From a virus (lineage: Duplodnaviria > Heunggongvirae > Uroviricota > Caudoviricetes), in IMG/VR virus record IMGVR_UViG_3300047323_000428, positions 85,208 to 111,080 of that record: 25,873 nt of DNA; one strand, 5' to 3'. Both the position numbers and the translations under genes were made by a program. This document shows positions 1,243 through 22,231 of the stretch, piece after piece (positions within the stretch are counted from its first letter, which is position 1; the number at the start of each line of letters is the position of its first letter). Below the pieces are notes generated by a model. That model did not search any database. It was not told the DNA's origin and worked only from the letters and a program-made list of their open reading frames with translations.

Positions 1243-1256
1243 TGTCAAAATTGACT
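1243..1256. promoter_or_regulatory. Operator, AGTCA-N4-TGACT family (1 mismatch)
   Basis: TGTCAAAATTGACT, just downstream of the minus-strand promoter of the CobT-like gene. Confidence 0.75.
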
Positions 1257-1267
1257 GTATGAACGAC

Positions 1268-1296
1268 ATTCTATGTGCGCACTTCAGGGAGCGCAA
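1268..1296 (-). promoter_or_regulatory. Sigma70-like promoter for the leftward (CobT-like) operon
   Basis: Minus strand TTGCGC (1296-1291), 17 bp spacer, TAGAAT (1273-1268); flanked by two operators. Confidence 0.6.
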
Positions 1297-1297
1297 C

Positions 1298-1311
1298 AGT
1301 CAAAGTTGACT
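1298..1311. promoter_or_regulatory. Operator AGTCA-N4-TGACT
   Basis: AGTCAAAGTTGACT, extending to CAGTCAA-AG-TTGACTG; next to the -35 element. Confidence 0.85.
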
Positions 1312-1324
1312 GACCTAGCGGGCG

Positions 1325-1347
1325 AAAAGAAAGCGGCCGGAGCCGCT
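1325..1347 (-). terminator. Rho-independent terminator after the 74-aa gene
   Basis: AGCGGC-CGGA-GCCGCT stem-loop followed on the minus strand by TTCTTTT. Confidence 0.6.
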
Positions 1348-1355
1348 AGGAGTGA

Positions 1356-1369
1356 AGTCAATACTGACT
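1356..1369. promoter_or_regulatory. Operator AGTCA-N4-TGACT
   Basis: AGTCAATACTGACT immediately after the stop codon of the 1370..1594 gene. Confidence 0.8.
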
Positions 1370-1594
1370 TTAAATGAGACGGATCAGTGCGGCCGCGCCC
1401 GAGTCAGTGCTGATAAGCAGGAGTGCGCCGAGCGCCGGGTGCATCACCTTGTTGATGAGCGAGGAACCCAGGTCCAGCCGCCCCAGCAGGGCCGAGCTCT
1501 CCATGTATTCCGCGAACTCGTCGGGCTCGATCAGGGAGCCGATTTGGGTTGCGTTGATGACTGCGTTTTGCACTTGATTGTTACCCGTGTTCAT
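1370..1594 (-). CDS. Hypothetical phage protein, 74 aa
   Basis: ORF with RBS GGAGAG, its own upstream TATAAT plus operator, and a downstream terminator. Confidence 0.7.
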   Translation of the reverse strand: MNTGNNQVQNAVINATQIGSLIEPDEFAEYMESSALLGRLDLGSSLINKVMHPALGALLLISTDSGAAALIRLI

Positions 1595-1644
1595 TTGACT
1601 TCACTCTCCAAAAACTGACGTTCGATATGATTCGCTGCTGAAAC

Positions 1645-1663
1645 ATTATAGTCAACACTGACT
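1645..1663 (-). promoter_or_regulatory. Operator AGTCA-N4-TGACT (1650-1663) fused to a perfect -10 TATAAT (1650-1645)
   Basis: Minus strand caatAGTCAGTGTTGACTATAATg. Confidence 0.85.
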
Positions 1664-1752
1664 ATTGTTACTACATTTCGAGTGTTCGTTTTCGTCCACT
1701 CGGGATTGCGTTCGGTAAAAAAGTGCGCAAGAATCCGGCACATGGAGCGAAC

Positions 1753-1766
1753 AGTCACGGCTGACT
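1753..1766. promoter_or_regulatory. Operator AGTCA-N4-TGACT upstream of the repressor gene
   Basis: AGTCACGGCTGACT exact match. Confidence 0.8.
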
Positions 1767-1798
1767 TACGCTCATATGGGACGTCGCCCACCCAACAC

Positions 1799-1828
1799 AG
1801 TCAGTATTTATTACTATCTGACTATAAT
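1799..1828 (+). promoter_or_regulatory. Putative repressor-gene promoter: degenerate operator half-sites plus TATAAT (1823-1828)
   Basis: AGTCAGTATTTATTACTATCTGACTATAAT; same TGACTATAAT junction as other sites; no canonical -35. Confidence 0.6.
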
Positions 1829-1880
1829 CGATTCAACAAGATTCGCGGGACGTCCCGCTTCAAATACAGGGAGAGTTAGC

Positions 1881-2309
1881 ATGAACGCCAAGAAGAACGA
1901 CCAGCCTCAGAGCCTCACCGTTTCGGAATACTTCGACGCACAAGTGTCACTGCGCCAAATCACCCTTCAACAACTGAGCGTCAACATCGGCGGCGCGATC
2001 AAGCCAAACATGCTTTCGATGATCCGCCAGGGTCACTCAAAGCTGCCGCTCAAGCACGTTGCAAAGGTCGCTCGGGCGCTGGGCGTCGATCCGATGTTCC
2101 TGATGAAGCTGTGTCTGCAGGAATACCAGCCGGAGAACTGGCACGCGATTCAAGAAGTGATGGGCAATCAGCCACTTCTGACGCACAACGAGATTCAGAT
2201 GATCGAGGCGATCCGAAAGGCCAACCCGCACAACCCCAAACTGCGCACGCAAGCAGACGAGGAAAAGTTTGTCAGAGTCGTCGCCTCCTTGAGAGGTGAT
2301 AACGAGTGA
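1881..2309 (+). CDS. XRE/Cro-cI family HTH regulator, probable phage master repressor, 142 aa
   Basis: Start moved to ATG 1881 (RBS GGGAGAG). HTH-like segment ITLQQLSVNIGGAIKPNMLSMIRQGHSKLPLKHVAKVARALGVDP. Divergent from the lytic genes with operators in between. No S24 peptidase domain. Confidence 0.75.
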   Translation: MNAKKNDQPQSLTVSEYFDAQVSLRQITLQQLSVNIGGAIKPNMLSMIRQGHSKLPLKHVAKVARALGVDPMFLMKLCLQEYQPENWHAIQEVMGNQPLLTHNEIQMIEAIRKANPHNPKLRTQADEEKFVRVVASLRGDNE

Positions 2310-2357
2310 GTGAGCAGGTGCGGGCGAGTTCATAAACAAGTTCTAAGCAGTTCCACG

Positions 2358-2386
2358 AAGCGTCCCAATGGGGCGCTTTTTTATTT
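2358..2386 (+). terminator. Rho-independent terminator of the repressor gene
   Basis: AAGCGTCCC-AAT-GGGGCGCTT followed by TTTTATTT. Confidence 0.8.
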
Positions 2387-2406
2387 CCCAGAGCCGGGTG
2401 CTAACA

Positions 2407-2422
2407 CTGTTTATTTATACAG
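2407..2422. promoter_or_regulatory. LexA (SOS) box
   Basis: CTGT-TTATTTAT-ACAG matches CTGT-N8-ACAG with an AT-rich core; the palindrome extends to ACACTGT...ACAGTGT (2404-2425). Confidence 0.75.
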
Positions 2423-2442
2423 TGTCGAGCGATTGATAGGAT
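2414..2442 (+). promoter_or_regulatory. Putative LexA-repressed sigma70 promoter (extended -10)
   Basis: TTTATA (2414-2419, inside the SOS box), 17 bp spacer, TGa-TAGGAT (2434-2442). Confidence 0.5.
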
Positions 2443-2550
2443 TGTAGGACCGTTGGAGGCGTAAAACAACTGGTAGTTGGCGGAAATGTAAAAAAATGTA
2501 GGCGGCTGTTTCATAATCGTCACAGCAACTTTTACCTACGTATTGCCGCC

Positions 2551-3243
2551 CTACGCCTCCACACACGGGTCTGTCCTAGTAACGCCCACCATCCGAACCG
2601 GTTGACCGGCATCGTTCCGGTAAATTTGGAACACTATCGTCACTTTGGGACGAATAGCGTCCCTTTCTCTGAACACTACCTGATAGCGTTGGGTCGGTTC
2701 CAATAAGGCTCGATTGTAGAAATCGTCAACCACCGGTTTATTTTCTTCAGATAATAGGCTTCGGAAGCTATCATGCGAGGGCAGCAGGTCTGGTGGAGCT
2801 TCCAAGTGTTGTCGAGCTAGATCGCTCCAATAGCACTTGCCTGTGATGAGGTCTTCCTCAATCACTCCAGCCTCCAAGATTGCGAGCGCGGCACACAATC
2901 GGCTTTCGTTGGCTATGACCTGTTCAACCAACTCTTGGCGCATCTGCCCAAAGCGCCCCTCTCTTTCTAGTCTAAGTTGCTTCTCAATTGATTGGAGAGC
3001 CTCGTCCCCATAGCGTAGCCACACCCAATTCACTCCGAGGTGGTTAGCAACTTCTTGGAGGACGTCAAAGCCTATGTCTCCTCCCTTCAACCATTTGGCA
3101 ACAGCTTGAGGAGTGACAGAGATGGAGCGAGCTAGCGATGCCGCGGTCATTTGTTTGTAACTAAGGACTTGTCTTAGTCTGTCAGGAAACCCTGACCCTA
3201 TACCTTGGCTTTGCAAGTTAGCTTCCTCTTGGTCCAGAATCAT
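2551..3243 (-). CDS. XRE-HTH + PAS-domain transcriptional regulator, 230 aa, low GC
   Basis: N-terminal FPDRLRQVL...TAASLARSISVTPQAVAKWLKGG...VANHLGVNWVWLRYGD is an XRE HTH. C-terminal ESRLCAALAILEAGVIEEDLITGKCYWSD...YRNDAGQPVRMVGV follows the PAS_3/PAC pattern. Confidence 0.8.
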   Translation of the reverse strand: MILDQEEANLQSQGIGSGFPDRLRQVLSYKQMTAASLARSISVTPQAVAKWLKGGDIGFDVLQEVANHLGVNWVWLRYGDEALQSIEKQLRLEREGRFGQMRQELVEQVIANESRLCAALAILEAGVIEEDLITGKCYWSDLARQHLEAPPDLLPSHDSFRSLLSEENKPVVDDFYNRALLEPTQRYQVVFRERDAIRPKVTIVFQIYRNDAGQPVRMVGVTRTDPCVEA

Positions 3244-3473
3244 CTTTAGTTTTTGAACAGGCGCGGCCCCGCTCTCTCATTGTTTTATTGGAGTTTGACC
3301 GCGAATTATATTTGAGAACTGATACTGGAAAGATAGGATCGAGACAATGTTGCCCGATTGGGACATTGCTTGCGGCGTCTGCTTTGTTGTCCAATTCTTG
3401 TCTTCTCGCAACGCTCATAGCTATTTCCGTTCCACGCTAGTTTCCCGCGCAGGTAGCACGCCCTGTAGCTTGG

Positions 3474-3491
3474 TTGGTATCAAGATACCAA
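3474..3491. promoter_or_regulatory. Perfect palindrome upstream of parA (operator or centromere candidate)
   Basis: TTGGTATC-AA-GATACCAA, with a further ATACC copy 3 bp after the first. Confidence 0.4.
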
Positions 3492-3525
3492 AATACCTAG
3501 CAGAGAAGCAGAGTTGAGAAGTGCC

Positions 3526-3554
3526 TTGAGGAATCGGCTGCTTTCGACTACGCT
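3526..3554 (+). promoter_or_regulatory. Putative parA promoter
   Basis: TTGAGG, 17 bp spacer, TACGCT. Confidence 0.4.
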
Positions 3555-3586
3555 ACGCGGCAATCACAGTAGCCAGCGAGGCAGCA

Positions 3587-4258
3587 ATGTCCGTAATCAA
3601 GGACGTATTTATGGTGGGAACAGAGAAGGGAGGTGTCGGCAAATCTACCTTCACTCAGAACTTGGCTGTTATACGCGCATCTCTCGACCGACGTGTGGCG
3701 GTATTTGATCTGGACGGGCAGGGCACGACCACGAAGTGGGCGTTGCGGCGCGCGGAGCATCCCGAACTGACCCAGATTTACGTCGAACGGTGGCCGCGTG
3801 AGAAGCGCCTCACCGAGGAAGAGTTTGCAGACGTGCTCGGTCGCCTCGTCGACCAATACGATGACGTCTTTATCGATGTGGGCGGCAAGGACTCTGATGG
3901 ATTCCGTTACGGGCTGGCGGTCGCTGAGAAAGTCGTCGCGCCGCTTATTCCGTCGCCGGCAGACCTGGACACGGTGCCCGATCTTCACGAATTGCTCGGC
4001 ACCTACACCAAGAAGATCGATGTGCGCGTTGTGCTTAATCAGGCTGACAAGCGCAAGCGCATGACCAAGGCAATGCTGAAACAAATGGAAGCATTCAAGG
4101 ACCGGTTGCCTCTCATGAAGCATCTCGTCGCCTCGCGCGAGAGCTATAAATTCGCCCTCGCTCAAGGCAAAGGCGTGACGGAATTGACCGGCGAGTGGTG
4201 GGATGCGGCCGCCGCCAACGAGATGAAAGATACCTATCTGGGAGCATTCGGAGCATGA
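3587..4258 (+). CDS. parA: ParA-family partition ATPase (short, type Ib-like)
   Basis: Deviant Walker A EKGGVGKST, DLDGQG, VFIDVGG; 223 aa with no N-terminal HTH. Confidence 0.92.
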   Translation: MSVIKDVFMVGTEKGGVGKSTFTQNLAVIRASLDRRVAVFDLDGQGTTTKWALRRAEHPELTQIYVERWPREKRLTEEEFADVLGRLVDQYDDVFIDVGGKDSDGFRYGLAVAEKVVAPLIPSPADLDTVPDLHELLGTYTKKIDVRVVLNQADKRKRMTKAMLKQMEAFKDRLPLMKHLVASRESYKFALAQGKGVTELTGEWWDAAAANEMKDTYLGAFGA

Positions 4259-4623
4259 GTAAAGACGACGTGATGAGCGCCCCAAAGGGTCGCAGTGCCA
4301 TTCTTGGCGCGCTGAAGAGTGAAGTGGCGGCGGTAACGACGGCGCCGCCCGCTGAGACTGTGCGACCGAGTGCCCCACCTGAGCCTCAAGCACCGACTGC
4401 GGAAGAGGGTAGGGCGCCAGCAGGCAAGCTCGACCTCTCGGCCCTGCGTGCGATGCGCCCGAAAAAGGAGGCGCCTGTCCAGCAACCTGTGCGTATTCCG
4501 CCGGCGCTTAAAGAGGATCTTAACTTGATCTGTTTTGCCACCGGGCAAACGAAGAACGACTTCATTGCCGAGGCACTGCGTGTTGCGGTGGCGCGTGAGA
4601 AGAAGCGGCTCGGGATGGATTGA
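4255..4623 (+). CDS. ParG-like ribbon-helix-helix partition protein
   Basis: ATGA overlap with the parA stop; disordered Pro/Ala-rich N-terminus; C-terminal QQPVRIPPALKEDLNLICFATGQTKNDFIAEALRVAV fits an RHH pattern. Confidence 0.75.
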   Translation: MSKDDVMSAPKGRSAILGALKSEVAAVTTAPPAETVRPSAPPEPQAPTAEEGRAPAGKLDLSALRAMRPKKEAPVQQPVRIPPALKEDLNLICFATGQTKNDFIAEALRVAVAREKKRLGMD

Positions 4624-4644
4624 CCGCCTCCTTGCAGACGCTTT

Positions 4645-4894
4645 TCGGGTTTTGAGGAACGCCCCAATCGGGTTTTGGGGAACGGTCCAACCTAGTTAAA
4701 AAGAAGTTAAAGGAAGTTAACAGAAAGAGGGTCGGGTCTGAAAGCCTTGTGTGGCAACGCCTTGAGCAAAGTAGGGCGTTTCTCAAAACCCGATACTTTG
4801 TTCCTCAAAGCCCGATACTGGCGTATCTCAAAACCCGAAAGCGTTCCTCAAAACCCGATAACAAAAGTTCCTCATAACCCGATAGTTGTCCACA
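4645..4894. repeat. Iteron plasmid origin (oriV): 7 iterons, AT-rich core, DnaA-like box
   Basis: Consensus GTTCCTCAAAACCCGATA. Direct copies at 4778, 4800, 4823, 4843 and 4867 (mean spacing about 22 bp); inverted copies at 4645-4660 and 4667-4683. AT-rich AGTTAA x3 tract at about 4692-4725. TTGTCCACA at 4886-4894. Confidence 0.9.
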
Positions 4895-4929
4895 TCTCAA
4901 ATCGGTGGGTGCGTGCTAACCTCGCCGGC

Positions 4930-5751
4930 ATGAAAACCAACACCGCTCTCGACATTCTGAATCGCCGTGCGGCTGCCCAGCAAAAGGCCGCTCCGGTTCA
5001 GACGCAGCTTGAACTGTGGTCGGAGAAGGTGCGTGGCATTCCAAACTCGTTCGCTCGGTGCGCACTCTTCACGGCGGCCGGCAAGAAAGAGCCTCGCTCC
5101 ACTTTCAACCAGGACGTCATCTTCTCGGTGCAGGGGTTCGAGCTGACCTACACCGGTGAGGAGCTACGCCAGGACGATCAGGACGTGTTCCTTCAGCTCG
5201 TCCACATGACGCGTGGCATTCCCCTCGGCCACAAGCTCGAAGTGACCGGATACGAGATTCTCAAGGCGCTCGGGTGGGGGCGGGGAGGGCGCGACTACGA
5301 GCGCCTGCGCGACAGCATCGAGCGGCTGTCGGACACGAAGATCGTCCTGCAGAGCAGCAACGTTCGATTCAAAGGCGGATTGCTGCCATCGATGACGCGT
5401 GTGGGCGACTCTGTCGCGAGCCGATTCCGTCTTTGGCTCGATCCCGACGTGATCGCACTTTTCGGCGAGAACGAATACTCGCTGGTCGATTGGAAGGACC
5501 GACTCACTCTCGGCTCCCTTGCCAAATGGCTGCACAGCTTCTACTTCACGCATAAGGAGCCGCTTGCCTATACCGTCGAGAAGATCCACAAGCTCTGCGG
5601 TAGCAAGGCGAAGAACCTGCGATTGTTCAAAGCCAAGCTCAAGCTCGCGCTCGAGGAATTGGTGCAGATCGGCTTTCTCGAAACCTATCAGATCATGGGC
5701 AGTCTGGTCTCAGTGCGCCGGCGATTCCCGCAGCCGCAACTAGGCAACTAA
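4930..5751 (+). CDS. trfA: TrfA-family plasmid replication initiator
   Basis: RGIPNSFARCALF, YTGEELRQDDQDVFLQLVH and LAKWLHSFYFTH match TrfA-family motifs. Start set at ATG 4930 because the longer ORF runs through the iterons. Confidence 0.85.
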   Translation: MKTNTALDILNRRAAAQQKAAPVQTQLELWSEKVRGIPNSFARCALFTAAGKKEPRSTFNQDVIFSVQGFELTYTGEELRQDDQDVFLQLVHMTRGIPLGHKLEVTGYEILKALGWGRGGRDYERLRDSIERLSDTKIVLQSSNVRFKGGLLPSMTRVGDSVASRFRLWLDPDVIALFGENEYSLVDWKDRLTLGSLAKWLHSFYFTHKEPLAYTVEKIHKLCGSKAKNLRLFKAKLKLALEELVQIGFLETYQIMGSLVSVRRRFPQPQLGN

Positions 5752-5773
5752 CTGTCCGACGCCATGCGTCCCT

Positions 5774-5796
5774 TTATCCACAGAATCGGTGCATAA
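5774..5796. promoter_or_regulatory. DnaA boxes downstream of rep
   Basis: Perfect TTATCCACA (5774-5782) and an inverted 1-mismatch TTATGCACC (5796-5788). Confidence 0.55.
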
Positions 5797-5816
5797 CCCT
5801 GTTGAGAACCGGTCAC

Positions 5817-6050
5817 ATGCCCAAGCAGCCATCAGCAAAAGTCGAGCATCGTGAATGGACGATCAAGTCTTTCCCCGAGTGCCGCAATTTCCTCTGGCAT
5901 TCGCAGATCGAGGTCGAGCGCGGCCCGTGGGAAGATGAAGACGACGGCCAGATTTTCGCATTCAGTGATATCGGCTACTTCGACACTGAGGCCGCGGCGA
6001 ACGATCGCGGCATTGCCTGGGCGAAGGCCTGGCTCGACGAGAACTTCTGA
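5817..6050 (+). CDS. Small acidic hypothetical protein, 77 aa
   Basis: Protein-like ORF with a beta-beta-beta-alpha pattern, ending FDTEAAANDRGIAWAKAWLDENF; start (5817 vs 5802) uncertain. Confidence 0.7.
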   Translation: MPKQPSAKVEHREWTIKSFPECRNFLWHSQIEVERGPWEDEDDGQIFAFSDIGYFDTEAAANDRGIAWAKAWLDENF

Positions 6051-6059
6051 GGATCGACG

Positions 6060-6308
6060 ATGAAAAGGCCCGGCGCCGTCGCTCTCAGTGAAGTCGCAGC
6101 ACGGACAAGCCACATCGAGATTGCCTGCACCCGGTGCGAGCGGCGCGGCCGCTATCAGTTGGCGAAGCTGGTTGCTCGGCTCGGTGAGGACTTCGCCATG
6201 ACCGACCTCGGCAGCGAACTCGCGGACTGTCCACGGCGCGCGTCGCCCGCTTGGAGCGAGCGATGCGACGTGTATTTCCCCGGCCTAGCCAAGATCATGA
6301 GCGAGTGA
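6060..6308 (+). CDS. Small putative Zn-binding protein, 82 aa
   Basis: RBS GAGGA; CxxC (ACTRCER) plus two later cysteines (DCP, RCD). Confidence 0.75.
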   Translation: MKRPGAVALSEVAARTSHIEIACTRCERRGRYQLAKLVARLGEDFAMTDLGSELADCPRRASPAWSERCDVYFPGLAKIMSE

Positions 6309-6311
6309 GGC

Positions 6312-6341
6312 CTTGGCTGCTAATTGTTATTAGCAGCCAAG
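6312..6341. repeat. Perfect 13-bp inverted repeat
   Basis: CTTGGCTGCTAAT-TGTT-ATTAGCAGCCAAG, lying between convergent transcription units. Confidence 0.8.
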
Positions 6342-6397
6342 CGTTTAATGGCCTCTAAACGGCTTTGCCGCTCTGCGATGCGGGTTCTGGGCCCAAA

Positions 6398-6425
6398 ACG
6401 GGTGTTAATAAAGCTTATGTCAAAT
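6398..6425 (+). other. Possible Xer (dif/cer-like) recombination site
   Basis: ACGGGTGTTAA-TAAAGC-TTATGTCAAAT. The right arm is 10/11 identical to the E. coli XerD arm TTATGTTAAAT; the left arm is degenerate but ends in TAA. Confidence 0.45.
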
Positions 6426-6435
6426 GCGCGAGCCG

Positions 6436-6459
6436 AAACAAAGCCGCCCGAAGGCGGCT
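6436..6459 (-). terminator. Rho-independent terminator ending the long leftward operon
   Basis: Minus strand AGCCGCC-TTCG-GGCGGCT followed by TTGTTT. Confidence 0.8.
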
Positions 6460-6465
6460 CGTGCT

Positions 6466-6780
6466 TTAGGCGGCGATTAAGAACTGCTCGCGGTCCTTGT
6501 CTCGGATCCACGCCGGCGCCCGACCCTGCCCACTCCACTCGGCACCCGTCTCCGGGTCGCGGTATTTCGCAGCAACCTTGCCTTTCTGTCGGCCTCTCTT
6601 TCTGGCCGGCGTCATTGCCTGCTGGATATCCTCGAGGGTGATTTCGTTCTCATACATCAACTGCTGGATTTGGCCCATTGCCTGCGAGCGCTGATGCGTC
6701 TCCGCTTCCTTAATGGCTTCCTGCAGTCGCGCGAGTTGTTCTCGCATCTCCTTGATGGATTGTGGGGAATTCGGTGCCAT
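6466..6780 (-). CDS. hns: H-NS family nucleoid protein, 104 aa
   Basis: Start reassigned to ATG 6780 (RBS AAGGA). Coiled-coil N-terminus and the signature AKYRDPETGAEWSGQGRAPAWI. Confidence 0.9.
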   Translation of the reverse strand: MAPNSPQSIKEMREQLARLQEAIKEAETHQRSQAMGQIQQLMYENEITLEDIQQAMTPARKRGRQKGKVAAKYRDPETGAEWSGQGRAPAWIRDKDREQFLIAA

Positions 6781-6788
6781 GTCTTTCC

Positions 6789-9039: not shown

Positions 9040-9451
9040 GTGCTTTCTCCAAAGCGAGTGTGTTGATGTGGATTTCTTCTTGGGCTGTCAGGTCGAGGCC
9101 GACGTGCTTCATAGCGATTGCGCGCATATCGTTTAAATGCGCGCGTGTCGCTGCCAACGCTGCTTGATGCGATTCGGTCGCTTCACCGCTCGATGGACGG
9201 AGCCCCGCTTTGTAAAGCGCGTCGAAAATGATCTGCGCGCTCTTGCAAGGGAGATTCATCACCGGTTCGTTCGGCGGCATCTGACCGCGTGGCACGTTCT
9301 CTATTTCGAAGGCCGCGATGGGCTTGACGACGCCGGTGCCGGCCGTGTTGCGATAACTGAGCAGGTGCAGGTCATACCCGCCCATGCTCAGGTTCTCGCG
9401 CACCATCGCATCCTCGATGTAGAGGCTTGATACGGTGACAGTCGTGCTCAC
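9020..9451 (-). CDS. Hypothetical protein, 143 aa
   Basis: GTG start overlapping the upstream TGA (GTGA); fits the operon packing. Confidence 0.7.
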   Translation of the reverse strand: MSTTVTVSSLYIEDAMVRENLSMGGYDLHLLSYRNTAGTGVVKPIAAFEIENVPRGQMPPNEPVMNLPCKSAQIIFDALYKAGLRPSSGEATESHQAALAATRAHLNDMRAIAMKHVGLDLTAQEEIHINTLALEKAHEKATW

Positions 9452-9645
9452 TTCGTCGGCTCCTCGTGAATCACCTCACCCACCGACGTGTCAAAGCGCA
9501 GCACACGGCCGCCCGCCGGGCACCGACCAATCGCCTGTTTCTTGCGGATATACACCTTCGTTCCGGTCGAGAGATTGGTGCGATGCTTGCCCTGTGCCGT
9601 CACCACGACGAACATTTCCTTGATGGGGCTCGGGGCGGTTTTCAT
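9448..9645 (-). CDS. Hypothetical protein, 65 aa
   Basis: ATGA overlap with the ligase stop. Confidence 0.7.
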   Translation of the reverse strand: MKTAPSPIKEMFVVVTAQGKHRTNLSTGTKVYIRKKQAIGRCPAGGRVLRFDTSVGEVIHEEPTK

Positions 9646-12546: not shown

Positions 12547-12565
12547 AGTATAGTCAGTTTTGACT
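12547..12565 (-). promoter_or_regulatory. Operator AGTCA-N4-TGACT (12552-12565) fused to a -10-like TATACT
   Basis: Minus strand caatAGTCAAAACTGACTATACT; a second -10, TAGAAT, at 12529-12524. Confidence 0.85.
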
Positions 12566-14261: not shown

Positions 14262-15673
14262 TACTCGACCCTCAAAATGCCCTTGATGAACGTCATCGTC
14301 GCCATGTCTTGTTGGATGAACACGGTGAAGCCTGACTCCTGATTCCGTGAAGCAGCGAAATACAGCCGCGCTTCGCCTTTTGACCGCTCCTCATCAGTGA
14401 TGTTGATGGAGATCACCAAGTCGGCAATTCGGATGCGGTTGAAGTCCTCTGCGACGTGTTCGGCTTTTGCCACCGTCGACTTGAAGCCTTCGCGGTTGGT
14501 CTGCGTGGCCGAAAGCATCGCAAAGCCTTCCACCAGCGCGATATCCCGCATGTCGGTGTAGACGGACTTCGAGTTCTCCACCGTGTCCGGCGTGCGAATG
14601 TTCGGCGCCATAATGTCGAGGTAGTCGACCACCACCACGTCGAAGATCACGCCCTTCGCCTTGTAGCGGTCGATCAACGTCTGCATCTTGTTGGGCGTGA
14701 ACTTGCCCGCCGGATGAACGGCGATCTTGAGCATTCCCGCTCTCGCCCGCAGCGCTTTGATTTTGCTATCGGTATCGTGGATGTTCTTGCCGAGCTCCTT
14801 GATCTTGTTCTCGGCTATTGACGCATCCAGGCGCATGGAGATAATCTCTTCCTGCAGCTCCAGTGACACGTAGAGGACGTTCTTTCCAGCGAGCGACGCA
14901 TTCTTAGCGAAATTTAGGAGTGCTGTGGACTTGCCCGCCTTAGCCCCGCCCATAAACAACGTCAGTTCGCGCCGACCCCAGCCCTTGTGCATCAGGATTT
15001 CATCGAGCTTGGGCAAGCCTGTGGAGATGCCCTTCGGCGGCGTCTTGCCGGATGCGGCGTCAAGGCGTTCTTCGGTTCGCGCCTCGATTCCGCCCCAGTA
15101 GTCGTAGTCATCCTCGTCCTCATTCAAGCCGACGTCATATGCTTCCTTGATCGACTTGAGGATCGGATCGAACTTCTTCTTCTCCAGCAGGCTCACCGAG
15201 GACAGGATCGCGTTGCTGACTGCCTGGTGCCGAGCGAACTCCGCAACCTTCTCAGCCACGAAGTCACGATCGCCCACGTCGGCGTCTTTCAATACCTTGA
15301 TCGCCCGCAGCACTTCGCCGGCGAAGTCCTTCTTCATGCGCGCGCTTGCAATCTCATCACGCAAGAGCGTCGGGAGAACACCGAAGTCGGGAACGCGCTT
15401 GAAGCGGTCGAAATAGCGCTTGACGAGGTCCACCAGACCCGCTTCACCGCTATTCTCGAAGTAGTCGGGCTTGAGCAGGTGCGACGTGCGGCGCATGAAT
15501 TCCGTATCGCGCAGCACGAGCGTAGCGATCTTGCTCTGGAACTCCTCGTCGAACTCGAACTTGGCGACTTCTTCGGCCGGCGAGGCTTCCGCTTCAACGG
15601 CCGCGCCGCTGAACGCTTTGCCCACCATTTCAGCGACCGACTCCTCGACGCTCGGAATGGTGGTGTCGCTCAT
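14261..15673 (-). CDS. DnaB-like (SF4) replicative DNA helicase
   Basis: Walker A GGAKAGKS, YVSLE, VVVDYLD, SATQTNR, AEDF...ADLVISI, ASRN. Confidence 0.92.
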   Translation of the reverse strand: MSDTTIPSVEESVAEMVGKAFSGAAVEAEASPAEEVAKFEFDEEFQSKIATLVLRDTEFMRRTSHLLKPDYFENSGEAGLVDLVKRYFDRFKRVPDFGVLPTLLRDEIASARMKKDFAGEVLRAIKVLKDADVGDRDFVAEKVAEFARHQAVSNAILSSVSLLEKKKFDPILKSIKEAYDVGLNEDEDDYDYWGGIEARTEERLDAASGKTPPKGISTGLPKLDEILMHKGWGRRELTLFMGGAKAGKSTALLNFAKNASLAGKNVLYVSLELQEEIISMRLDASIAENKIKELGKNIHDTDSKIKALRARAGMLKIAVHPAGKFTPNKMQTLIDRYKAKGVIFDVVVVDYLDIMAPNIRTPDTVENSKSVYTDMRDIALVEGFAMLSATQTNREGFKSTVAKAEHVAEDFNRIRIADLVISINITDEERSKGEARLYFAASRNQESGFTVFIQQDMATMTFIKGILRVE

Positions 15674-16149
15674 TGGTAGTGGCCCTCTTCAGCGCGCTCG
15701 ACAGCGGGCTTCGCAGCCGGCGTGCGACGCAGCGGCACGAAGCGCTGAATGGCGTGCTTGAAAATCACGTTCACTTCGAAGCTGCCAGCTTGCTCGGCTT
15801 CGATACCGGCCAGCTCAACCTCCACCGAGATCGTGTATTTGTCATGCGCCCGGATTTTGCCGACGATCGGTTCGTCCTGATCGAGCAGATAGACCTTGAT
15901 GCGCGCACCGGACTCCTGCAGCGCCTTGACGAACGCTTCGTGACCGACCGGGGCTTGCTTATTCGGCTTGGCGGCAGCGCGCGTGTTGCTGCGCAGATGA
16001 CCGGTGCCGGTCGTGCGGCTCGGCTCGTAGCCAGGGCGGGTGCCCAGACGCGGACGGGCGGCTTGCGGCGTATCGTCGTCGCAGCGAGCCATGCGCTGAC
16101 CTTCACGCAGTTGCTCGGCACGCGCTTGTTCGGGGGTGAGATAACTCAT
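15670..16149 (-). CDS. hfq: Hfq-like Sm-fold RNA-binding protein with a long N-terminal extension, 159 aa
   Basis: Start MSYLTP at 16149 (RBS GGAGA). EAFVKAL...IKVYL...GKIRAHDKYTI...VIFKHAI..FVP aligns with Hfq DPFLNAL...VSIYL...GQIESFDQFVI...MVYKHAI..VVP. Confidence 0.75.
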   Translation of the reverse strand: MSYLTPEQARAEQLREGQRMARCDDDTPQAARPRLGTRPGYEPSRTTGTGHLRSNTRAAAKPNKQAPVGHEAFVKALQESGARIKVYLLDQDEPIVGKIRAHDKYTISVEVELAGIEAEQAGSFEVNVIFKHAIQRFVPLRRTPAAKPAVERAEEGHYQ

Positions 16150-16205
16150 GAAACTTCTCCAACGCGGGGAAAATGGGGTAATCGAAACGTCACACTGACG
16201 CACAC

Positions 16206-16224
16206 ATTATAGTCAATTTTGACT
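16206..16224 (-). promoter_or_regulatory. Operator AGTCA-N4-TGACT (16211-16224) fused to a perfect -10 TATAAT
   Basis: Minus strand taatAGTCAAAATTGACTATAATg, upstream of the hfq-helicase operon. Confidence 0.85.
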
Positions 16225-16957: not shown

Positions 16958-17084
16958 CCATCGCCTCTCGTATATAAAACTTAATACTTAAATCGTAGTC
17001 TTTAGATGCTTTAATACATACGGGAACGCATTGGGAGCCCAAGTGGCGGCCCCGTGTTACCCGTGTCCCATCAGAGACGAATAT

Positions 17085-17111
17085 GGGCGGACCCGAGAAC
17101 CGGACCCGCCC
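17085..17111 (-). terminator. Stem-loop after phoH (weak U-tract)
   Basis: Minus strand GGGCGGGTCCG-GTTCT-CGGGTCCGCCC followed by ATATT. Confidence 0.4.
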
Positions 17112-17119
17112 TTGGCTTC

Positions 17120-17872: not shown

Positions 17873-17910
17873 GAGGGCGTCCTAGGCGGGTTCTAAGAGC
17901 CCTCATTATT

Positions 17911-17924
17911 ACTCAGTTTTGACT
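17911..17924. promoter_or_regulatory. Operator AGTCA-N4-TGACT (1 mismatch) upstream of phoH
   Basis: Minus strand taacAGTCAAAACTGAGTaataat. Confidence 0.75.
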
Positions 17925-17959
17925 GTTACTCCATATAAGAGGAACGCCTTTTTAGTGGA

Positions 17960-18703
17960 TCAGGGGCTTGACAATGCCGCTTCACCCATCGGGCGACGAA
18001 TGCGCTGCATCGGCCCGGTCGCGGCTTCCTCGAGCGTCATGCCGAGCTTCATCCGGTAGGCGATCGTCTGTCTTGACCTGCCGACCAATTCCTCGAGCTG
18101 GCGCATCGTCACCATCTGACCCTGCCATTCGACGGTCGCCTTGGCGGCTCTCATGCGGCCCTTCGCTTCCTCCGAGTGCGCGATGCCCGTGTTGGGAGGT
18201 GGCTTGCCTTTGTTGGCTGCGCTCAGGTTGGCACGGTGCGCCGCGCTCTTTGGCTTGCCAAGGTGGGCCACCCGGATCGCCTCCCGCGACTGGTCTGTGT
18301 GCGGCGCTCCAGGCTTGCCCATTTTCGCAGCGCTGATTCTGGCCCGAGCCTCTGGTGAGTTCTTGAGGCCGCGCCTCGATCCGTTACGCCCTTCCCAGCA
18401 AATGTTGTAGCCGAAGGCGTCATCGGTCAATTGTCGGCCGCGGATCTGCTCTTCCTCGATCCGATCAAGATCGTCGCCTTCGCAGTAGCAGATCACCTCT
18501 AGGACGAAGGAGTCTTCCCCATATTTCGACCAGGCGTTCTGCAGGCGCCCATTGTAGTGAGCGCCCCTGCGGAGTAATTTTCGATGGTCGGCGAACCGCC
18601 TGAGCATGTTGACCGATTGCCCGACATACACCCTGTCGTTCGCTGTGTTGCGAATCTGGTATATGCCGGACTTGGCAAACAGCTCACGATCTTCTTCCGT
18701 CAT
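17960..18703 (-). CDS. Free-standing GIY-YIG homing endonuclease with NUMOD3-type repeats
   Basis: Start MTEEDR at 18703 (ATGA overlap). SGIYQIRN...VYVGQS...RFADH and HYNGRLQNAWSKYG; repeats HTDQSREAI and HSEEAKGRM. Confidence 0.88.
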   Translation of the reverse strand: MTEEDRELFAKSGIYQIRNTANDRVYVGQSVNMLRRFADHRKLLRRGAHYNGRLQNAWSKYGEDSFVLEVICYCEGDDLDRIEEEQIRGRQLTDDAFGYNICWEGRNGSRRGLKNSPEARARISAAKMGKPGAPHTDQSREAIRVAHLGKPKSAAHRANLSAANKGKPPPNTGIAHSEEAKGRMRAAKATVEWQGQMVTMRQLEELVGRSRQTIAYRMKLGMTLEEAATGPMQRIRRPMGEAALSSP

Positions 18704-19986: not shown

Positions 19987-20012
19987 TCGGCTTCTCGGGC
20001 AGTGGTGGGTTG

Positions 20013-20318
20013 TTATTGGCTGGCTTGTTGGTCGACCAAGTGCTGCACGTAGTCGACCAGCGCGTCGTGGTAGGTGGCGAGCTCGTGGTAGAGCCGCACG
20101 ATCTCCAGATCGTTGTCCACGAACTCTTTAAGGTTGAGCGGGTGATCCTCCGGCAGCAGAGGCAGGGCTTGCGACTTCTGCATGGCTGCCTGCGGCGGCA
20201 CTAACAACGATGCCTGCACGGGCGCTGTTGAGCAGCCGGACAGTATCGACGTCGAAAGGCAAAGGCTGGTCGCCAACAGGGTTGCTCGCATCACAGACAG
20301 GAGCTTGAGCGGTTTCAT
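20013..20318 (-). CDS. o-spanin (Rz1-like outer-membrane lipoprotein)
   Basis: Lipobox LSGC after a hydrophobic signal, Pro-rich segment, overlaps the 3' half of the i-spanin; start 20318 or 20291 uncertain. Confidence 0.8.
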   Translation of the reverse strand: MKPLKLLSVMRATLLATSLCLSTSILSGCSTAPVQASLLVPPQAAMQKSQALPLLPEDHPLNLKEFVDNDLEIVRLYHELATYHDALVDYVQHLVDQQASQ

Positions 20319-20598
20319 GGTTTGTCGAGGTGGAAACGACAGGTTTGCGGGGTTGAGCAAGCCGCGCGTCGATGGCCTGCTTCACGTTTGCGACGGCCGC
20401 GTCTTTGGATTGCACGGTCGTCTGGATCTGTTGGCTTGCCGCGGTCGATTGTTGAACCGCGCGGGCCGTGACTTTCACTTCCTGCTTCACTGCTGCGACC
20501 TGGCTTGCCAGCGCGAACTTGTGCGCGGTGTAGAGGCCCGCGCCAAAGGCGATCGCGCAAGCAGCGGCCAGGATGCCGAGTTTGGAGAGCAGATTCAT
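20128..20598 (-). CDS. i-spanin (Rz-like)
   Basis: Single N-terminal TM, helical periplasmic domain and a C-terminal Cys; position after holin and endolysin. Confidence 0.8.
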   Translation of the reverse strand: MNLLSKLGILAAACAIAFGAGLYTAHKFALASQVAAVKQEVKVTARAVQQSTAASQQIQTTVQSKDAAVANVKQAIDARLAQPRKPVVSTSTNHETAQAPVCDASNPVGDQPLPFDVDTVRLLNSARAGIVVSAAAGSHAEVASPASAAGGSPAQP

Positions 20599-20601
20599 CG
20601 G

Positions 20602-20850
20602 TTACTCCGGTTTGGGCGGGACCGGCGCGCTCTCCTTTTTCATCGACATCCACACACCAATGCCGGCAAATAGAGCGGCGGCACCCGTGCCGAACGAGGT
20701 AGCCGAAAACGGCACCTTGTTCGCTACGGTGTCCCACGTCTGATTGAAGATGAAGTCCGCTGCCGTAATGGCCGCGGCGTATTTCGCCAGGTCGGGCGTT
20801 GCGTTGTCGACCTCGGTGAAGAGCCGGTGCAGGTAGTCCTTGATGCTCAT
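20602..20850 (-). CDS. Putative holin, 82 aa
   Basis: Start MSIKDY with ATGA overlap to the endolysin stop; two hydrophobic segments and a basic C-terminus. Confidence 0.65.
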   Translation of the reverse strand: MSIKDYLHRLFTEVDNATPDLAKYAAAITAADFIFNQTWDTVANKVPFSATSFGTGAAALFAGIGVWMSMKKESAPVPPKPE

Positions 20851-21398
20851 GCCGCGCGCCCTCCGAGGAACATCACCTGCTCGGCCATGCGGCGCTTCAG
20901 GAGCCCCGCGATGTGCTTGCCGCCGGCCATGTCCCACTTCGGGAATTCGCGCGCTGCCGCCGCGTCGTTGGTCGAATTCAGGTAGCGCAAGAGGCTCGAT
21001 CCGGCGAAGTTGCCCGCACCGATGTTGAAGACCAGATCCACGAGCGCGTCGAATTCGTTCTGCGTGAGACCGCCTTCCTGCTTGGAGAGATCGACCAGGC
21101 GGTTCACCGTCGCAACGGCGCCTGCCACGTCGTGCAGCAGTTGTGCATCAGCCTGCTCTTGGGTCCACGTGAGGCCGTAACGCACTTCCGGGCCGGTGTG
21201 CCCCACTCCGATCGTCCACGGCCCGCCATTGAGCTTGAGCAGCGCCGGCGGGATCACGCCCGTTTTGAGCACGTCCTGCCACATGCCGCGACGCTGCAGT
21301 TCCTTCGCAAGCGGAGAAGCGGGATCGGGATAGGCGTGAAGAATGCACCCTTCTGCCGTTTCGGTGAGGTGCAGACCGTCTTTGGAATATTGCATCAT
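20847..21398 (-). CDS. Endolysin, GH24 (T4-type) lysozyme
   Basis: EG...AYPD...WTIGVGHTG, QNEFDALVDLVFNIG, GLLKRRMAE. Confidence 0.92.
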   Translation of the reverse strand: MMQYSKDGLHLTETAEGCILHAYPDPASPLAKELQRRGMWQDVLKTGVIPPALLKLNGGPWTIGVGHTGPEVRYGLTWTQEQADAQLLHDVAGAVATVNRLVDLSKQEGGLTQNEFDALVDLVFNIGAGNFAGSSLLRYLNSTNDAAAAREFPKWDMAGGKHIAGLLKRRMAEQVMFLGGRAA

Positions 21399-21400
21399 GG

Positions 21401-21751
21401 TCAGTGAGCGAATTTGACGATGGCGGCGACAGCGCCGGAGCCAACAAGACCTGCGAGAAGCGTGTAAACCACCTTCAGCGTGCCGGACATGCCCTTGACC
21501 ATTGCCACGTGCTCGATGTTGGTTTCATTGAGCTTGGTGACCTTCTCGCTCGTCTCGGTCACGCGGTCTTCGAGTTTTTCAACCCGCAACTGGGTCGCCT
21601 GATGGCGCTCTTCCAGAATCGCGAGTTTGGTGATGGCCGTCGCAATCTGCGACAGGGCGCCTTTAATATCGACAACGTCGCGCTGAACGTTGTTGACTTG
21701 TTGCTCCAACATTCCAAGGTCGACAGGCATGTCATCGGTCCCAATGGTCAT
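21401..21751 (-). CDS. Coiled-coil protein with a C-terminal TM (XhlA/holin-accessory-like)
   Basis: Heptad region then LKVVYTLLAGLVGSGAVAAIVKF; RBS AAGGGA before ATG 21751; first gene of the lysis cassette. Confidence 0.65.
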   Translation of the reverse strand: MTIGTDDMPVDLGMLEQQVNNVQRDVVDIKGALSQIATAITKLAILEERHQATQLRVEKLEDRVTETSEKVTKLNETNIEHVAMVKGMSGTLKVVYTLLAGLVGSGAVAAIVKFAH

Positions 21752-21794
21752 TCGCTGATTTCCCTTGTCTGTCTCTTGCAAAGGCTGAGACGAA

Positions 21795-21836
21795 ATGATA
21801 AGTCAAAACCGACTGTTAGGCCAGTCAGTTTTGACT
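21795..21836 (-). promoter_or_regulatory. Tandem operators (21801-21814 with 1 mismatch; 21823-21836 exact) plus -10 TATCAT upstream of the lysis cassette
   Basis: Minus strand taatAGTCAAAACTGACTggcctaacAGTCGGTTTTGACTTATCAT; 22-bp repeat spacing. Confidence 0.85.
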
Positions 21837-21857
21837 ATTATGGCAGTCGAAACGACC

Positions 21858-22190
21858 TTAGACGATTTCGCCGCCAGCGAGCGCGTAGCGCGAGAGCATC
21901 ATCATGCCCGGCAAGATCGGCGTATCGACCACGCCTTCGGGAATCGGAGCAACAAGCGCCTTTTCCGCGAACTCGAACGGGTCTTCACCCGCTTCCGGCA
22001 TCGTGCCCAGCGTCACCGTGCTACCGAAGGAGATCGGCTGCTTGCCGGCCTTGTAGGTGTCTTCCGAGACGTAGCTATGCACCTGCACGTTGGTGTTCTT
22101 CGTCATGCGGTCGATGTTGACCGACGAGACGTAGTGGAAGCTCGCGGTGCTGCCAGTCGACTCGAGGATGACTTCCTTTTTGATGCCCAT
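21858..22190 (-). CDS. Tail-module hypothetical protein, 110 aa
   Basis: Start MGIKKE at 22190 (RBS AGGAG). Confidence 0.8.
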   Translation of the reverse strand: MGIKKEVILESTGSTASFHYVSSVNIDRMTKNTNVQVHSYVSEDTYKAGKQPISFGSTVTLGTMPEAGEDPFEFAEKALVAPIPEGVVDTPILPGMMMLSRYALAGGEIV

Positions 22191-22217
22191 AAAGGCTCCT
22201 GTTTGGTGGTGAATAAC

Positions 22218-22231
22218 AGTCAATGTTGAGT
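22218..22231. promoter_or_regulatory. Operator AGTCA-N4-TGACT (1 mismatch)
   Basis: taacAGTCAATGTTGAGT in the 22191-22244 intergenic gap. Confidence 0.7.

Follow-up and report, generated by a model that had tools for sequence, protein, structure and literature searches.

The stretch of DNA analysed here (the window; 25,873 nucleotides) is the final 26 kb of a 111-kb phage-plasmid in which ParA and TrfA genes were identified. It carries the dyad AGTCA-N4-TGACT in 7 exact copies (1298, 1356, 1650, 1753, 12552, 16211 and 21823) and 4 one-mismatch copies (1243, 17911, 21801 and 22218), so that all 11 sites listed in a preliminary description of this DNA are present. The dyads also stand before the CobT, WGR/ligase, Hfq/helicase, PhoH and lysis blocks, as that description had stated. 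Five of them cluster around the gene of an XRE protein. The features are as follows.

1243..1256, no strand assigned: one-mismatch dyad TGTCA-AAAT-TGACT, at about +5 to +18, downstream of the cobT -10
1268..1296, minus strand: predicted sigma70-like promoter of the CobT-like operon, TTGCGC-N17-TAGAAT, read from the sequence and scored
1298..1311, no strand assigned: exact dyad, whose minus-strand extension TGACT-G-TT runs into the cobT -35
1356..1369, no strand assigned: exact dyad, flanked by the stop codon of the 74-aa protein gene and by that gene's terminator (1332-1347)
1370..1594, minus strand: 74-aa protein gene, first gene of the leftward (lytic-direction) transcript, divergent from the XRE gene
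1645..1668, no strand assigned: exact dyad (1650-1663) with fused hexamers, conserved in the relative G001
1753..1772, plus strand: exact dyad with AAC extension, then TACGCT, upstream of the XRE gene
1799..1828, plus strand: split half-sites AGTCA (1799-1803) and TGACT (1819-1823), 15 nt apart, as read from the sequence
1881..2309, plus strand: XRE142, a 142-aa HTH_3 protein and candidate dyad binder (Pfam, PHROG, orthologues, homodimer model)
12552..12565, minus strand: exact dyad fused to TATACT, heading the WGR-to-ligase-to-guanylate-kinase block
16211..16224, minus strand: exact dyad fused to a perfect TATAAT, heading the Hfq-like / DnaB helicase / primase block
17911..17924, minus strand: one-mismatch dyad (..TGAGT on the coding strand), then AATAAT, heading the PhoH block
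21801..21836, minus strand: dyad pair (21823 exact, 21801 one-mismatch), then TATCAT, heading the holin-like/endolysin block
22218..22231, minus strand: one-mismatch dyad (ACTCA.. on the coding strand), preceding a 121-aa gene of unknown function

By GC3-based gene calls, 11 of 11 window dyads are intergenic, with the dyad at 22218 touching an uncertain start codon, and an AAY extension accompanies 9 of 11 when either strand is counted; both observations agree with the preliminary description. Among 100 dinucleotide-preserving shuffles the exact dyad did not occur, and copies with at most one mismatch had a mean of 0.45 and a maximum of 4. In the whole 111-kb genome we counted 30 exact dyads and 48 with at most one mismatch, compared to 0.05 exact copies expected from composition, which is consistent with the earlier rough figure of about 0.01 per 26 kb; a search of the same genome for a second dyad of comparable abundance returned none. 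The preliminary description had named equal frequency in coding DNA and equal frequency in the host chromosome as findings that would speak against the motif. Genome-wide, however, 45 of the 48 dyads are non-coding, although non-coding bases make up 19.5% of the sequence (binomial p about 1e-28), and in 81 genomes of the likely host family, Burkholderiaceae (~333 Mb), there were 129 dyad matches vs. 112 matches to the reversed motif used as control (0.39/Mb vs. ~270/Mb in the phage). The dyad is absent from a 9.6-Mb Caballeronia genome in which an XRE142 gene of 66% identity is present. The dyad repeat is therefore real and phage-specific. Dyads span the entire 111-kb genome and only the plasmid module is spared, the gaps of the XRE230/ParA/TrfA module being free of dyads both here and in the relative L058; the regulon proposed earlier is not confined to replication and lysis genes but would include virion genes as well.

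The full site is a 20-bp dyad, AAY-AGTCA-AAAN-TGACT-RTT, with half-site centres 9 bp apart, and is partly asymmetric in its AAAN spacer and outer arms. Relative to transcription, 30 sites are co-oriented and 10 are in the opposite orientation (p = 0.001). A simple symmetric dimer requires neither the asymmetric spacer and outer arms nor this orientation bias, and these features count against the explanation that we rank highest below. Comparison of orthologous sites with those of G001 (n = 41) gave column identities of 93% in the half-sites, 59% in the spacer and 78% in the flanks; the corresponding values for the relative G002 were 86%, 53% and 72%. Variation within the half-sites is symmetric, A(G/C)TCA, with G·G or C·C at positions 2/13 in 11 cases and compensated pairs in 0. 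As the preliminary description had supposed, the dyads look like scattered sites at which a sequence-specific, dimeric protein of the phage binds.

A sigma70-like promoter is found near 30 of the 48 dyads (about 60%) compared to 10% of random windows, and the remaining 18 are without promoter-like hexamers; most dyads are thus predicted, from hexamers, to sit on host-type promoters. The geometries are mixed, with the dyad in the -35/-10 spacer (where its final T is the first T of the -10), directly upstream of the -35, or over the predicted transcription start, and because of this mixture a repressor fits better than an activator. In 10 of 44 sites the closing T of the motif starts a TAnnnT (2.4% in the background), and a perfect TATAAT is seen five times. 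The upstream -35 match averages 2.59 of 6 positions at dyads vs. 2.52 in the background (p = 0.17), and the perfect -10 sites have weak -35s, as activator-dependent promoters do, which counts against a repressor. Some promoters are sandwiched between two dyads, an arrangement conserved in G001 and paralleled in RHEph10. The predicted cobT promoter is flanked in this way by the dyads at 1298 and 1243 (centres 55 bp apart), and that of G001 (TTGCGT-N17-TACAAT) shows the same sandwich; the dyad at 1243 lies 24 nt before the cobT start codon, a position conserved in G001, G002 and L058. Several dyads are promoter-less and are found 13 nt ahead of a start codon or in the gap separating a stop codon from a terminator, which counts against the explanation ranked highest; the dyad at 1356, which has no promoter association, is not conserved in G001 or G002. 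The dyads at 21801 and 21823 have opposite spacer orientations (centres 22 bp apart), and both spacers are flipped in G001.

Around the XRE gene, the dyad at 1650 is fused on the minus strand to a perfect TATAAT (1650-1645), the predicted promoter of the 74-aa protein gene, and on the plus strand to TATTGT (1663-1668). The dyad at 1753 may serve the XRE gene as an autoregulatory operator/promoter, and the TGACT of the split site is fused to TATAAT (1823-1828), the predicted proximal promoter of that gene; the Caballeronia XRE142 homologue is preceded by a similar split arrangement. For the 74-aa protein we found no Pfam or PHROG family. Rhizobium and Klebsiella relatives have a gene of similar small size in its place, without a detectable sequence match, and a Cro- or antirepressor-like role for the protein is a speculative possibility.

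XRE142 matches Pfam HTH_3 (PF01381) over residues 27-71 with E 8.2e-5 and 23.0 bits, exactly at the cut-off of 23, and its PHROG matches (phrog_8 and phrog_2967) are annotated 'transcriptional regulator'; its assignment to the XRE / HTH_3 (Cro/CI-type) regulators is marginal but consistent. Orthologues occur in all lineages, and it is the sole control-region regulator common to all, whereas XRE230 (2551-3243) and the 74-aa protein were detected in close relatives only. XRE142 is predicted to dimerise through a C-terminal domain: the homodimer model has an ipSAE of 0.62 vs. 0.00 for the best control, with a partner pLDDT of 83 and at least 95% of contacts agreeing between runs, and its interface consists almost wholly of residues 57-142, mainly the C-terminal domain. 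Since the model interface has no contacts before residue 57, most of the HTH would be exposed. Among solved proteins, 20 of 30 one-chain pairs attain this ipSAE mark, compared to 1 of 23 single chains; as HTH dimers are common, however, the score may reflect likeness to solved structures. A search of solved structures for a sequence match to XRE142 gave none, the best hits (E 0.06) being unrelated proteins.

Relatives with an identical recognition helix (LKPNMLSMIR) share the motif in the same places, with 29 copies in G001, 11 in G002 and 7 in 20 kb of L058. A 5-N4-5 dyad abutting TAnnnT is dispersed through distant relatives too, and is again found upstream of the XRE142 orthologue, with the word changed: to ARTCA-N4-TGAYT, 19 times in each of the Rhizobium phages, and to GGTAA-GTAC-TTACC in the Klebsiella SSU5-like plasmid pJN2-26. 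The Klebsiella recognition helix resembles ours (PNILSL vs. PNMLSM), yet the dyad differs at 2 of 5 half-site positions. Dyads were found upstream of the XRE142 gene in three lineages, those whose region was read.

We consider it probable that an HTH regulator encoded by the phage and acting as a homodimer, most likely XRE142, has the dyad as its operator and silences nearly all lytic operons. The XRE protein at 1881, put forward earlier as the regulator, thus remains the best candidate binder; both its identity as the binder and the repressive effect of binding we infer from architecture and comparison. Each HTH would read one A(G/C)TCA half-site of the 20-bp dyad. While the element persists as a plasmid prophage, dimers on promoter-embedded dyads would keep RNA polymerase out, and dimers on the remaining, mostly co-oriented dyads could stop read-through, as at stoperators. 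A single protein would in this way silence replication, virion and lysis blocks across about 45 sites, while the ParA/TrfA maintenance module, which has no dyads, would stay on. The five dyads around the regulator gene and the divergent 74-aa protein gene may form the switch and allow autoregulation.

That the dyads are operators bound by XRE230, or by a conserved protein encoded elsewhere, rather than by XRE142, we regard as unlikely. The 72.5-kb fragment of the relative G003 has 7 exact dyads and no detected XRE142 homologue, but it is only 68% complete. XRE230 has a stronger HTH_3 match than XRE142 and PHROG matches to 'transcriptional repressor', and the similar XRE142 recognition helices of Klebsiella and Burkholderiales, despite different dyads, also favour another binder. 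However, Rhizobium and Klebsiella phages without an XRE230 homologue keep dispersed dyads in the same frame, and no dyad lies near the XRE230 promoter region, whereas the XRE142 gene has dyads upstream in the three lineages whose region was read.

A positive factor of the same kind that binds the dyads and lets RNA polymerase use lytic promoters lacking a -35 is distinctly unlikely. Such a factor would functionally resemble T4 MotA or a MerR-type spacer binder. It would account for the many dyads in fixed register with a -10-like hexamer, which recur in Rhizobium and Klebsiella relatives, for -35 matches no better than background at dyads and poor at the five perfect TATAAT sites, and for a G003 dyad centred near -41.5, the classical class II activator position. 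But a dimer with its centre near -18.5 would encroach on the sigma/-10 contacts, the geometries vary (spacer, upstream of the -35, over the start site, flanked by two dyads), the spacers are 16-18 bp and not the 19-20 bp of the MerR type, and the near-consensus promoters next to G003 dyads (TTGACA-N17-TACATT and TTGACA-N18-TAGAAT) would not need activation. Moreover, the same word stands before replication, virion and lysis genes alike and therefore marks no single temporal class. Less likely again is that the XRE protein is a bifunctional promoter-specificity factor, with the dyad and -10 forming a portable cassette that needs no -35 and drives the whole lytic programme. If so, the lytic programme of a very large and widespread phage-plasmid superfamily (Burkholderiales, Rhizobium and SSU5-like enterobacterial) would depend on an XRE protein, and co-evolution of the helix with the 5-N4-5 word would define immunity groups.

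It is highly improbable that the dyad acts as an RNA hairpin (a processing, stability or termination signal in polycistronic transcripts). In favour of a hairpin, most dyads have the orientation of transcription, and those outside promoters would become part of the RNA; a lone dyad is predicted to form a 7-bp hairpin (-6.6 kcal/mol, z -2.5 to -4.4), and the 21801/21823 pair one of 15 bp (-23.1 kcal/mol); and two of the dyads occupy the loop of larger stems that have co-varying arms among relatives. Against it, the 11 variants at positions 2/13 break the pair and, being symmetric and never compensatory, point to a protein-DNA site, the stem is conserved in sequence and not merely in pairing, promoter-embedded dyads lie upstream of the predicted start and hence outside that transcript, some dyads are in the opposite orientation, and no Rfam family matches the dyad.

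Clinically common plasmids of Klebsiella, Salmonella and E. coli are among the SSU5-related elements, as are environmental elements of Burkholderiales and Rhizobium, and in the literature searched we found no description of the lysis-lysogeny control of this group. Together, the operator word, the candidate regulator named here and the conserved layout of promoters and operators make a directly testable switch, and they offer a sequence-only prediction of transcription units and immunity groups.

Among known systems, lambdoid Cro/CI-type repressors (434, P22) have an HTH_3-type domain, dimerise via a separate C-terminal domain and bind 14-18-bp dyad operators whose outer half-sites are conserved while the A/T-rich centre is not, at divergent promoters and clustered at the repressor gene. 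The HTH_3-type domain, predicted C-terminal-domain dimer, 14-bp dyad, divergent promoters and clustered operators described here resemble this arrangement, but lambdoid operators occur only in the immunity region (OL, OR), whereas here about 45 sites cover the whole genome. Repressor c of the temperate Streptomyces phage phiC31 has a palindromic operator word at many intergenic positions next to early promoters; that phage integrates, is 41 kb long, and differs from ours in word, protein and host.

In phage P1, 22 operators are dispersed over the genome (PMC8546580). P1 C1 is alike in that one repressor controls many scattered lytic functions of a phage-plasmid; the repressor gene is under operator control too, and the P1 immunity region includes coi, a small antagonist gene. 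The P1 operators, however, are 17-bp asymmetric sequences (ATTGCTCTAATAAATTT), in contrast to a dyad of 5-bp half-sites and a 4-bp spacer, and the 142-aa HTH_3/XRE candidate is set apart from C1 by family assignment; the 5-N4-5 dyad and the HTH_3 candidate therefore make the resemblance functional only. Mycobacteriophage L5 and other Cluster A phages have about 30 sites in short intergenic regions across the genome, most pointing the same way with respect to transcription; only a few of them are genuine promoter operators, and between related phages motif and repressor diverge together (PMC6550527). Their stoperators are asymmetric 13-bp sites, unlike the two-fold symmetric core found here; few are at promoters, compared to the about 60% of our dyads that coincide with promoter-like hexamers; and the present element is a plasmid prophage of proteobacterial hosts. 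Because the dyads are physically fused to promoter hexamers, the stoperators are as close an analogue as P1, and the comparison with C1 made earlier is fair functionally but not the only one to draw. Many copies of one word lie before lytic functions in a temperate phage-plasmid, as in dispersed-operator systems. P1 and L5 already exemplify the principle of one repressor acting at many dispersed sites, and the mechanism is not new; what would be new here is the site, the protein family and the lineage to which the dispersed-operator principle is extended.

We found AGTCA-N4-TGACT in the window in seven exact copies (1298, 1356, 1650, 1753, 12552, 16211 and 21823) and four copies with one mismatch (1243, 17911, 21801 and 22218), precisely those listed in the preliminary description. 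Dinucleotide-preserving shuffles of the window yielded 0 exact dyads and, with ≤1 mismatch allowed, 0.45 dyads on average. The window corresponds to 85208-111080 of the source record, an IMG/VR virus of 111,080 bp (60.7% G+C, rated complete; its coordinates are hereafter called genome positions). This record contains 30 exact copies and 0 copies of the reversed, non-complemented control word. In a de novo census of 5-mer dyads across the whole genome (gaps of 0-12), AGTCA-N4-TGACT leads with 30 copies vs. 0.05 expected; the runner-up dyads reach 9 copies and are themselves sub-words of this site. Sites with ≤1 mismatch are non-coding in 45 of 48 cases, compared to 19.5% of bases (p ~ 1 × 10−28), which bears out their description as intergenic; the 3 ‘coding’ sites are located at doubtful 5' ends of gene calls. 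Copies with two mismatches show no clear intergenic enrichment (8 of 26 vs. 5 expected), so ≤1 mismatch is a sound boundary for the site set. The one-mismatch dyads at genome positions 35621 and 36329, outside the window, abut another palindrome, GTTTCACGTGAAAC, in a low-GC island.

Genes called by codon-position G+C (GC3 ~0.8, GC2 ~0.4) numbered 136 and are nearly throughout on the - strand. Searches against Pfam and PHROG identified the following products in the window.

Gene products of the window (Pfam/PHROG)
2-1219, - strand, CobT-like protein
1370-1594, - strand, 74-aa protein, no family
1881-2309, + strand, HTH_3 protein of 142 aa (XRE142)
2551-3243, - strand, second HTH_3 protein, 230 aa (XRE230)
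3587-4258, + strand, ParA
4747-5751, + strand, TrfA
window, - strand, guanylate kinase, ATP-dependent ligase, WGR protein, primase, DnaB helicase
window, - strand, Hfq-like protein, PhoH, endolysin, tail fibre with S74 chaperone domain

This gene content, with ParA and TrfA next to phage genes, identifies the element as a phage-plasmid. No matches were returned when the window was compared by megablast with GenBank phages, or TrfA by tblastn with phages. The sites lie just 5' of the CobT, WGR-ligase, Hfq-helicase, PhoH and lysis blocks, as had been proposed, but the proposed restriction to replication and lysis genes was too narrow: across the genome, virion and other blocks likewise start just downstream of sites. 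The XRE230/ParA/TrfA module (window 2310-6788) is free of dyads in its gaps. As annotated, the Hfq-like gene (window 15670-16203) starts 7 nt from a dyad, within the -10/start region predicted there; its long N-terminal extension, rich in Arg, Pro and Gly, may be an artefact of picking the first in-frame start codon.

The consensus of 37 sites aligned in the local gene direction is (t/c)AAY-AGTCA-AAAN-TGACT-(A/g)T. Its outer arms (AAY vs. RTT) partly extend the palindrome, and the full site is therefore a 20-bp dyad. The site is partly asymmetric: among the 37 sites, the two bases of the 5' AA are retained 31 and 35 times and the three of the spacer AAA 35, 29 and 32 times, and the 3' arm is weaker. 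Sites are oriented along transcription in 30 cases and against it in 10 (p = 0.001), with the opposed sites falling mostly into two groups, namely, the divergent control region (1243-1766) and the second members of close pairs (21801 with 21823, and, at genome positions, 65265 with 65292 and 49519 with 49552).

Anchoring on CobT and the XRE protein, we identified three relatives in IMG/VR: G001 (113 kb with terminal repeats; CobT 81% and XRE 71% identical), G002 (a 40.7-kb fragment) and G003 (a 72.5-kb fragment, also L028; CobT 51%), which carry 29, 11 and 7 exact dyads, respectively. A protein search added L058, a 115.6-kb JGI contig, whose 20-kb locus contains 5 exact and 2 one-mismatch dyads preceding DNA polymerase III alpha, CobS, CobT (two sites), a small gene and the XRE gene, and zero dyads in its ParA/TrfA/toxin-antitoxin stretch. 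Across 41 orthologous sites compared to G001, identity is 93% over the ten half-site columns, vs. 59% over the four spacer columns and 78% in the flanks; the same comparison to G002 gives 86%, 53% and 72%. To judge from these alignments, constrained half-sites around a free centre are the pattern predicted by a dimeric operator. At the conserved pair 21801-21836, compared to G001 96134-96169, both spacers are flipped (AAAC/GTTT here, GTTC/AAAT in G001), and spacer polarity is thus not evolutionarily fixed. The exact dyad at genome position 83066 (2142 before the window start) lies within a 32-bp insertion, 13 nt 5' of a start codon; G001 and G002 lack this insertion in the orthologous gap, which makes the dyad an example of recent site gain. 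In G003, the more distant relative, an apparent N-terminal part of a P4-type integrase (9059-9679) replaces the XRE/ParA/TrfA module next to cobT, and this phage may integrate instead of replicating as a plasmid. Its dyads have spacers that are not A-rich and mostly adjoin the -35 element, not the -10.

More distant XRE homologues, at 31-37% identity, are encoded by the ~115-kb Rhizobium phages RHEph10 and RHph_N1_10 and by ~110-kb Klebsiella phage-plasmids such as pJN2-26. In all of these relatives, the XRE gene has a small gene, CobT and CobS as neighbours; in the Rhizobium phages it is co-directional with cobT rather than divergent from it. Many core proteins are held in common at 25-60% identity. 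De novo dyad counts in the Rhizobium phages identified AATCA-N4-TGATT and, with R/Y allowed at positions 2/13 (ARTCA-N4-TGAYT), 19 sites in each phage. In RHEph10, 16 of the 19 dyads are intergenic. As a rule TAC(c/a)AT comes next, and in several cases TTGATG, TTGGCA or TTGACG is located exactly 17 bp upstream. AGTCA-N4-TGACT is absent from pJN2-26, which has 9-15 copies of TAGGTAAGTACTTACCTA, likewise abutting TAnnnT hexamers, one of them immediately 5' of its XRE homologue; this word fits the 5-N4-5 frame as GGTAA-GTAC-TTACC, with G2, T3 and A5 in common with AGTCA, and for a Klebsiella SSU5-like plasmid the word is given as GGTAAGTACTTACC. The layout is kept while the word shifts by lineage, and this speaks for a cognate protein encoded by the phage. 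A second dispersed dyad of pJN2-26 (MZ779062), AAACAAnTTGTTT, occurs in 14 copies (e.g., record positions 27047, 27632 and 29082) inside a ~35-bp conserved module and is distinct from TAGGTAAGTACTTACCTA, the counterpart of AGTCA-N4-TGACT. Many of its copies lie ~13 nt downstream of a GATAAT-like box, just 5' of the ribosome-binding site, a placement that implies at least one more system in pJN2-26; a second regulator may bind AAACAAnTTGTTT, or it may be an element of the 5' UTR.

The preliminary description had named XRE142 as the simplest candidate for the binder. Of the three control-region genes, XRE142 alone has homologues that could be detected in the Rhizobium and Klebsiella lineages; those of XRE230 and of the 74-aa protein were found in close relatives only. 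In all three lineages read, the lineage's own word, as a copy or spacing variant, is upstream of the XRE142 gene, and the helix LKPNMLSMIR is common to 8 of 8 close XRE homologues. The possibility that a protein other than XRE142 binds the dyad draws on G003, where dyads are present and an XRE142 homologue was not found in the available 68% of the genome, and on the Klebsiella helix PNILSL, which is close to that of XRE142, yet the word differs (few lineages were compared). XRE142 had no solved-structure relatives, the best matches being unrelated bacteriophytochromes (E = 0.06). Modelled as a homodimer from an 8-sequence alignment, XRE142 reached an ipSAE of 0.62 vs. 0.00 for the best control, with a partner pLDDT of 83 and three runs agreeing in ≥95% of contacts; among proteins of solved structure, 20 of 30 pairs of one chain and 1 of 23 single chains attained this ipSAE mark. 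This outcome may partly reflect likeness to solved structures, in which HTH repressor dimers are well represented. The modelled interface involves residues 57-142 almost wholly, mainly the C-terminal domain, with zero contacts before residue 57, and leaves the HTH (residues 27-71) mostly exposed.

The last T of the dyad is frequently the first base of a -10-like hexamer on the coding strand: TAnnnT starts there in 10 of 44 sites vs. a 2.4% background (p = 8 × 10−8), and a perfect TATAAT 5 times, including 1650 and 16211. Sigma70-like pairs (-35 matching at least 3 of 6; -10 at least 4 of 6 with A2 and T6; total at least 8 of 12; spacer of 16-18 bp) occur near 30 of 48 sites, compared to 10% of random windows. 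The dyad fills the spacer (e.g., TTGACC-N17-TATGAT, genome position 39018), is immediately followed by the -35, with the GTT arm running into TTG (TTGACA-N17-TACAGT at genome position 26146; the cobT promoter TTGCGC-N17-TAGAAT at window 1296-1268), or covers the predicted start site. Sites 1298 and 1243, with centres 55 bp apart, sandwich the cobT promoter; the same sandwich is found in G001, and an analogous one in RHEph10. Two caveats bear on this association: a generic scan of the window for canonical promoters showed no excess (5 vs. 5.1 expected; 0 vs. 2.0), and the mean -35 match upstream of sites is at background (2.59 vs. 2.52 of 6). The motif is therefore not a mere by-product of consensus promoters. 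The expected compensation between -35 and -10 quality across sites was not significant (Spearman −0.14, p = 0.38). The other 18 of the 48 sites lack any promoter-like hexamers; some of these precede a start codon by 13 nt or separate a stop codon from a terminator hairpin, the latter as at genome position 20353 after a highly conserved gene, an arrangement kept in G001 and G003.

We favour repression by the dyad-bound regulator because the positions of sites relative to promoter hexamers are mixed, two sites flank some promoters, G003 has near-consensus promoters next to dyads, lytic genes of every temporal class are preceded by one word, the maintenance module is spared, and operators cluster around a divergent regulator gene. 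An activator, for which the fixed register of the dyad with the -10 and the weak -35s speak, appears unlikely. Under repression, promoter-less, co-oriented sites may act as roadblocks resembling L5 stoperators.

A host transcription-factor site is rejected, since the motif occurs at control level in the host family, which we infer from one XRE homologue and G+C content: 81 sampled genomes of that family (~333 Mb, summed) contain 129 motif copies vs. 112 of the reversed control, a density of ~0.39 per Mb compared to ~270 per Mb in the phage. Bacterial XRE loci were sought with the closer-homologue alignment, the distant-homologue alignment being too divergent for a genome scan, and only two were identified. 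One, an orphan with 66% identity and the nearest bacterial copy, is located on a 9.6-kb Caballeronia calidae contig (NZ_FCOX02000125, 8700-9202). It retains traces of the promoter architecture, with an AGTCA half-site and also a GC hairpin ahead of the XRE start codon, and has no dispersed sites; the exact dyad is absent from the whole 9.6-Mb genome.

At the paired positions 2/13, the sites genome-wide comprise 30 G/C, 11 G·G or C·C, 2 potential G·U and 0 compensated pairs, the half-site being A(G/C)TCA in either arm; single sites fold into a predicted hairpin of only −6.6 kcal/mol, an Rfam search of the window gave zero family matches, and promoter-embedded sites would fall 5' of their own transcripts, so we reject an RNA hairpin and read the site as the target of a two-fold symmetric DNA-binding protein. 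The dyads at genome positions 84382 and 58896 (826 and 26,312 bases before the window start) occupy the loop of a larger inverted repeat with arms TAGGGAAC ... GTTCCCTA. The arms co-vary in relatives (CGGGAAC/GTTCCCG in G001; TTGGGAAA/TTCTCAA in G002), which suggests selection for a stem-loop enclosing the operator at both positions.

A literature search found no description of an SSU5-type phage-plasmid operator. In the lysogen transcriptome of the SSU5-like element Cyrano, a ‘putative repressor’ is expressed 10-fold over the prophage background, with no operator given. The word, protein family and lineage are without description in the searchable literature; the principle of dispersed operators is already known. 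P1 has 22 dispersed C1 operators, which are asymmetric and 17 bp long (PMC8546580), and Cluster A phages have ~30 sites oriented along transcription, only some of which are true promoter operators (PMC6550527).
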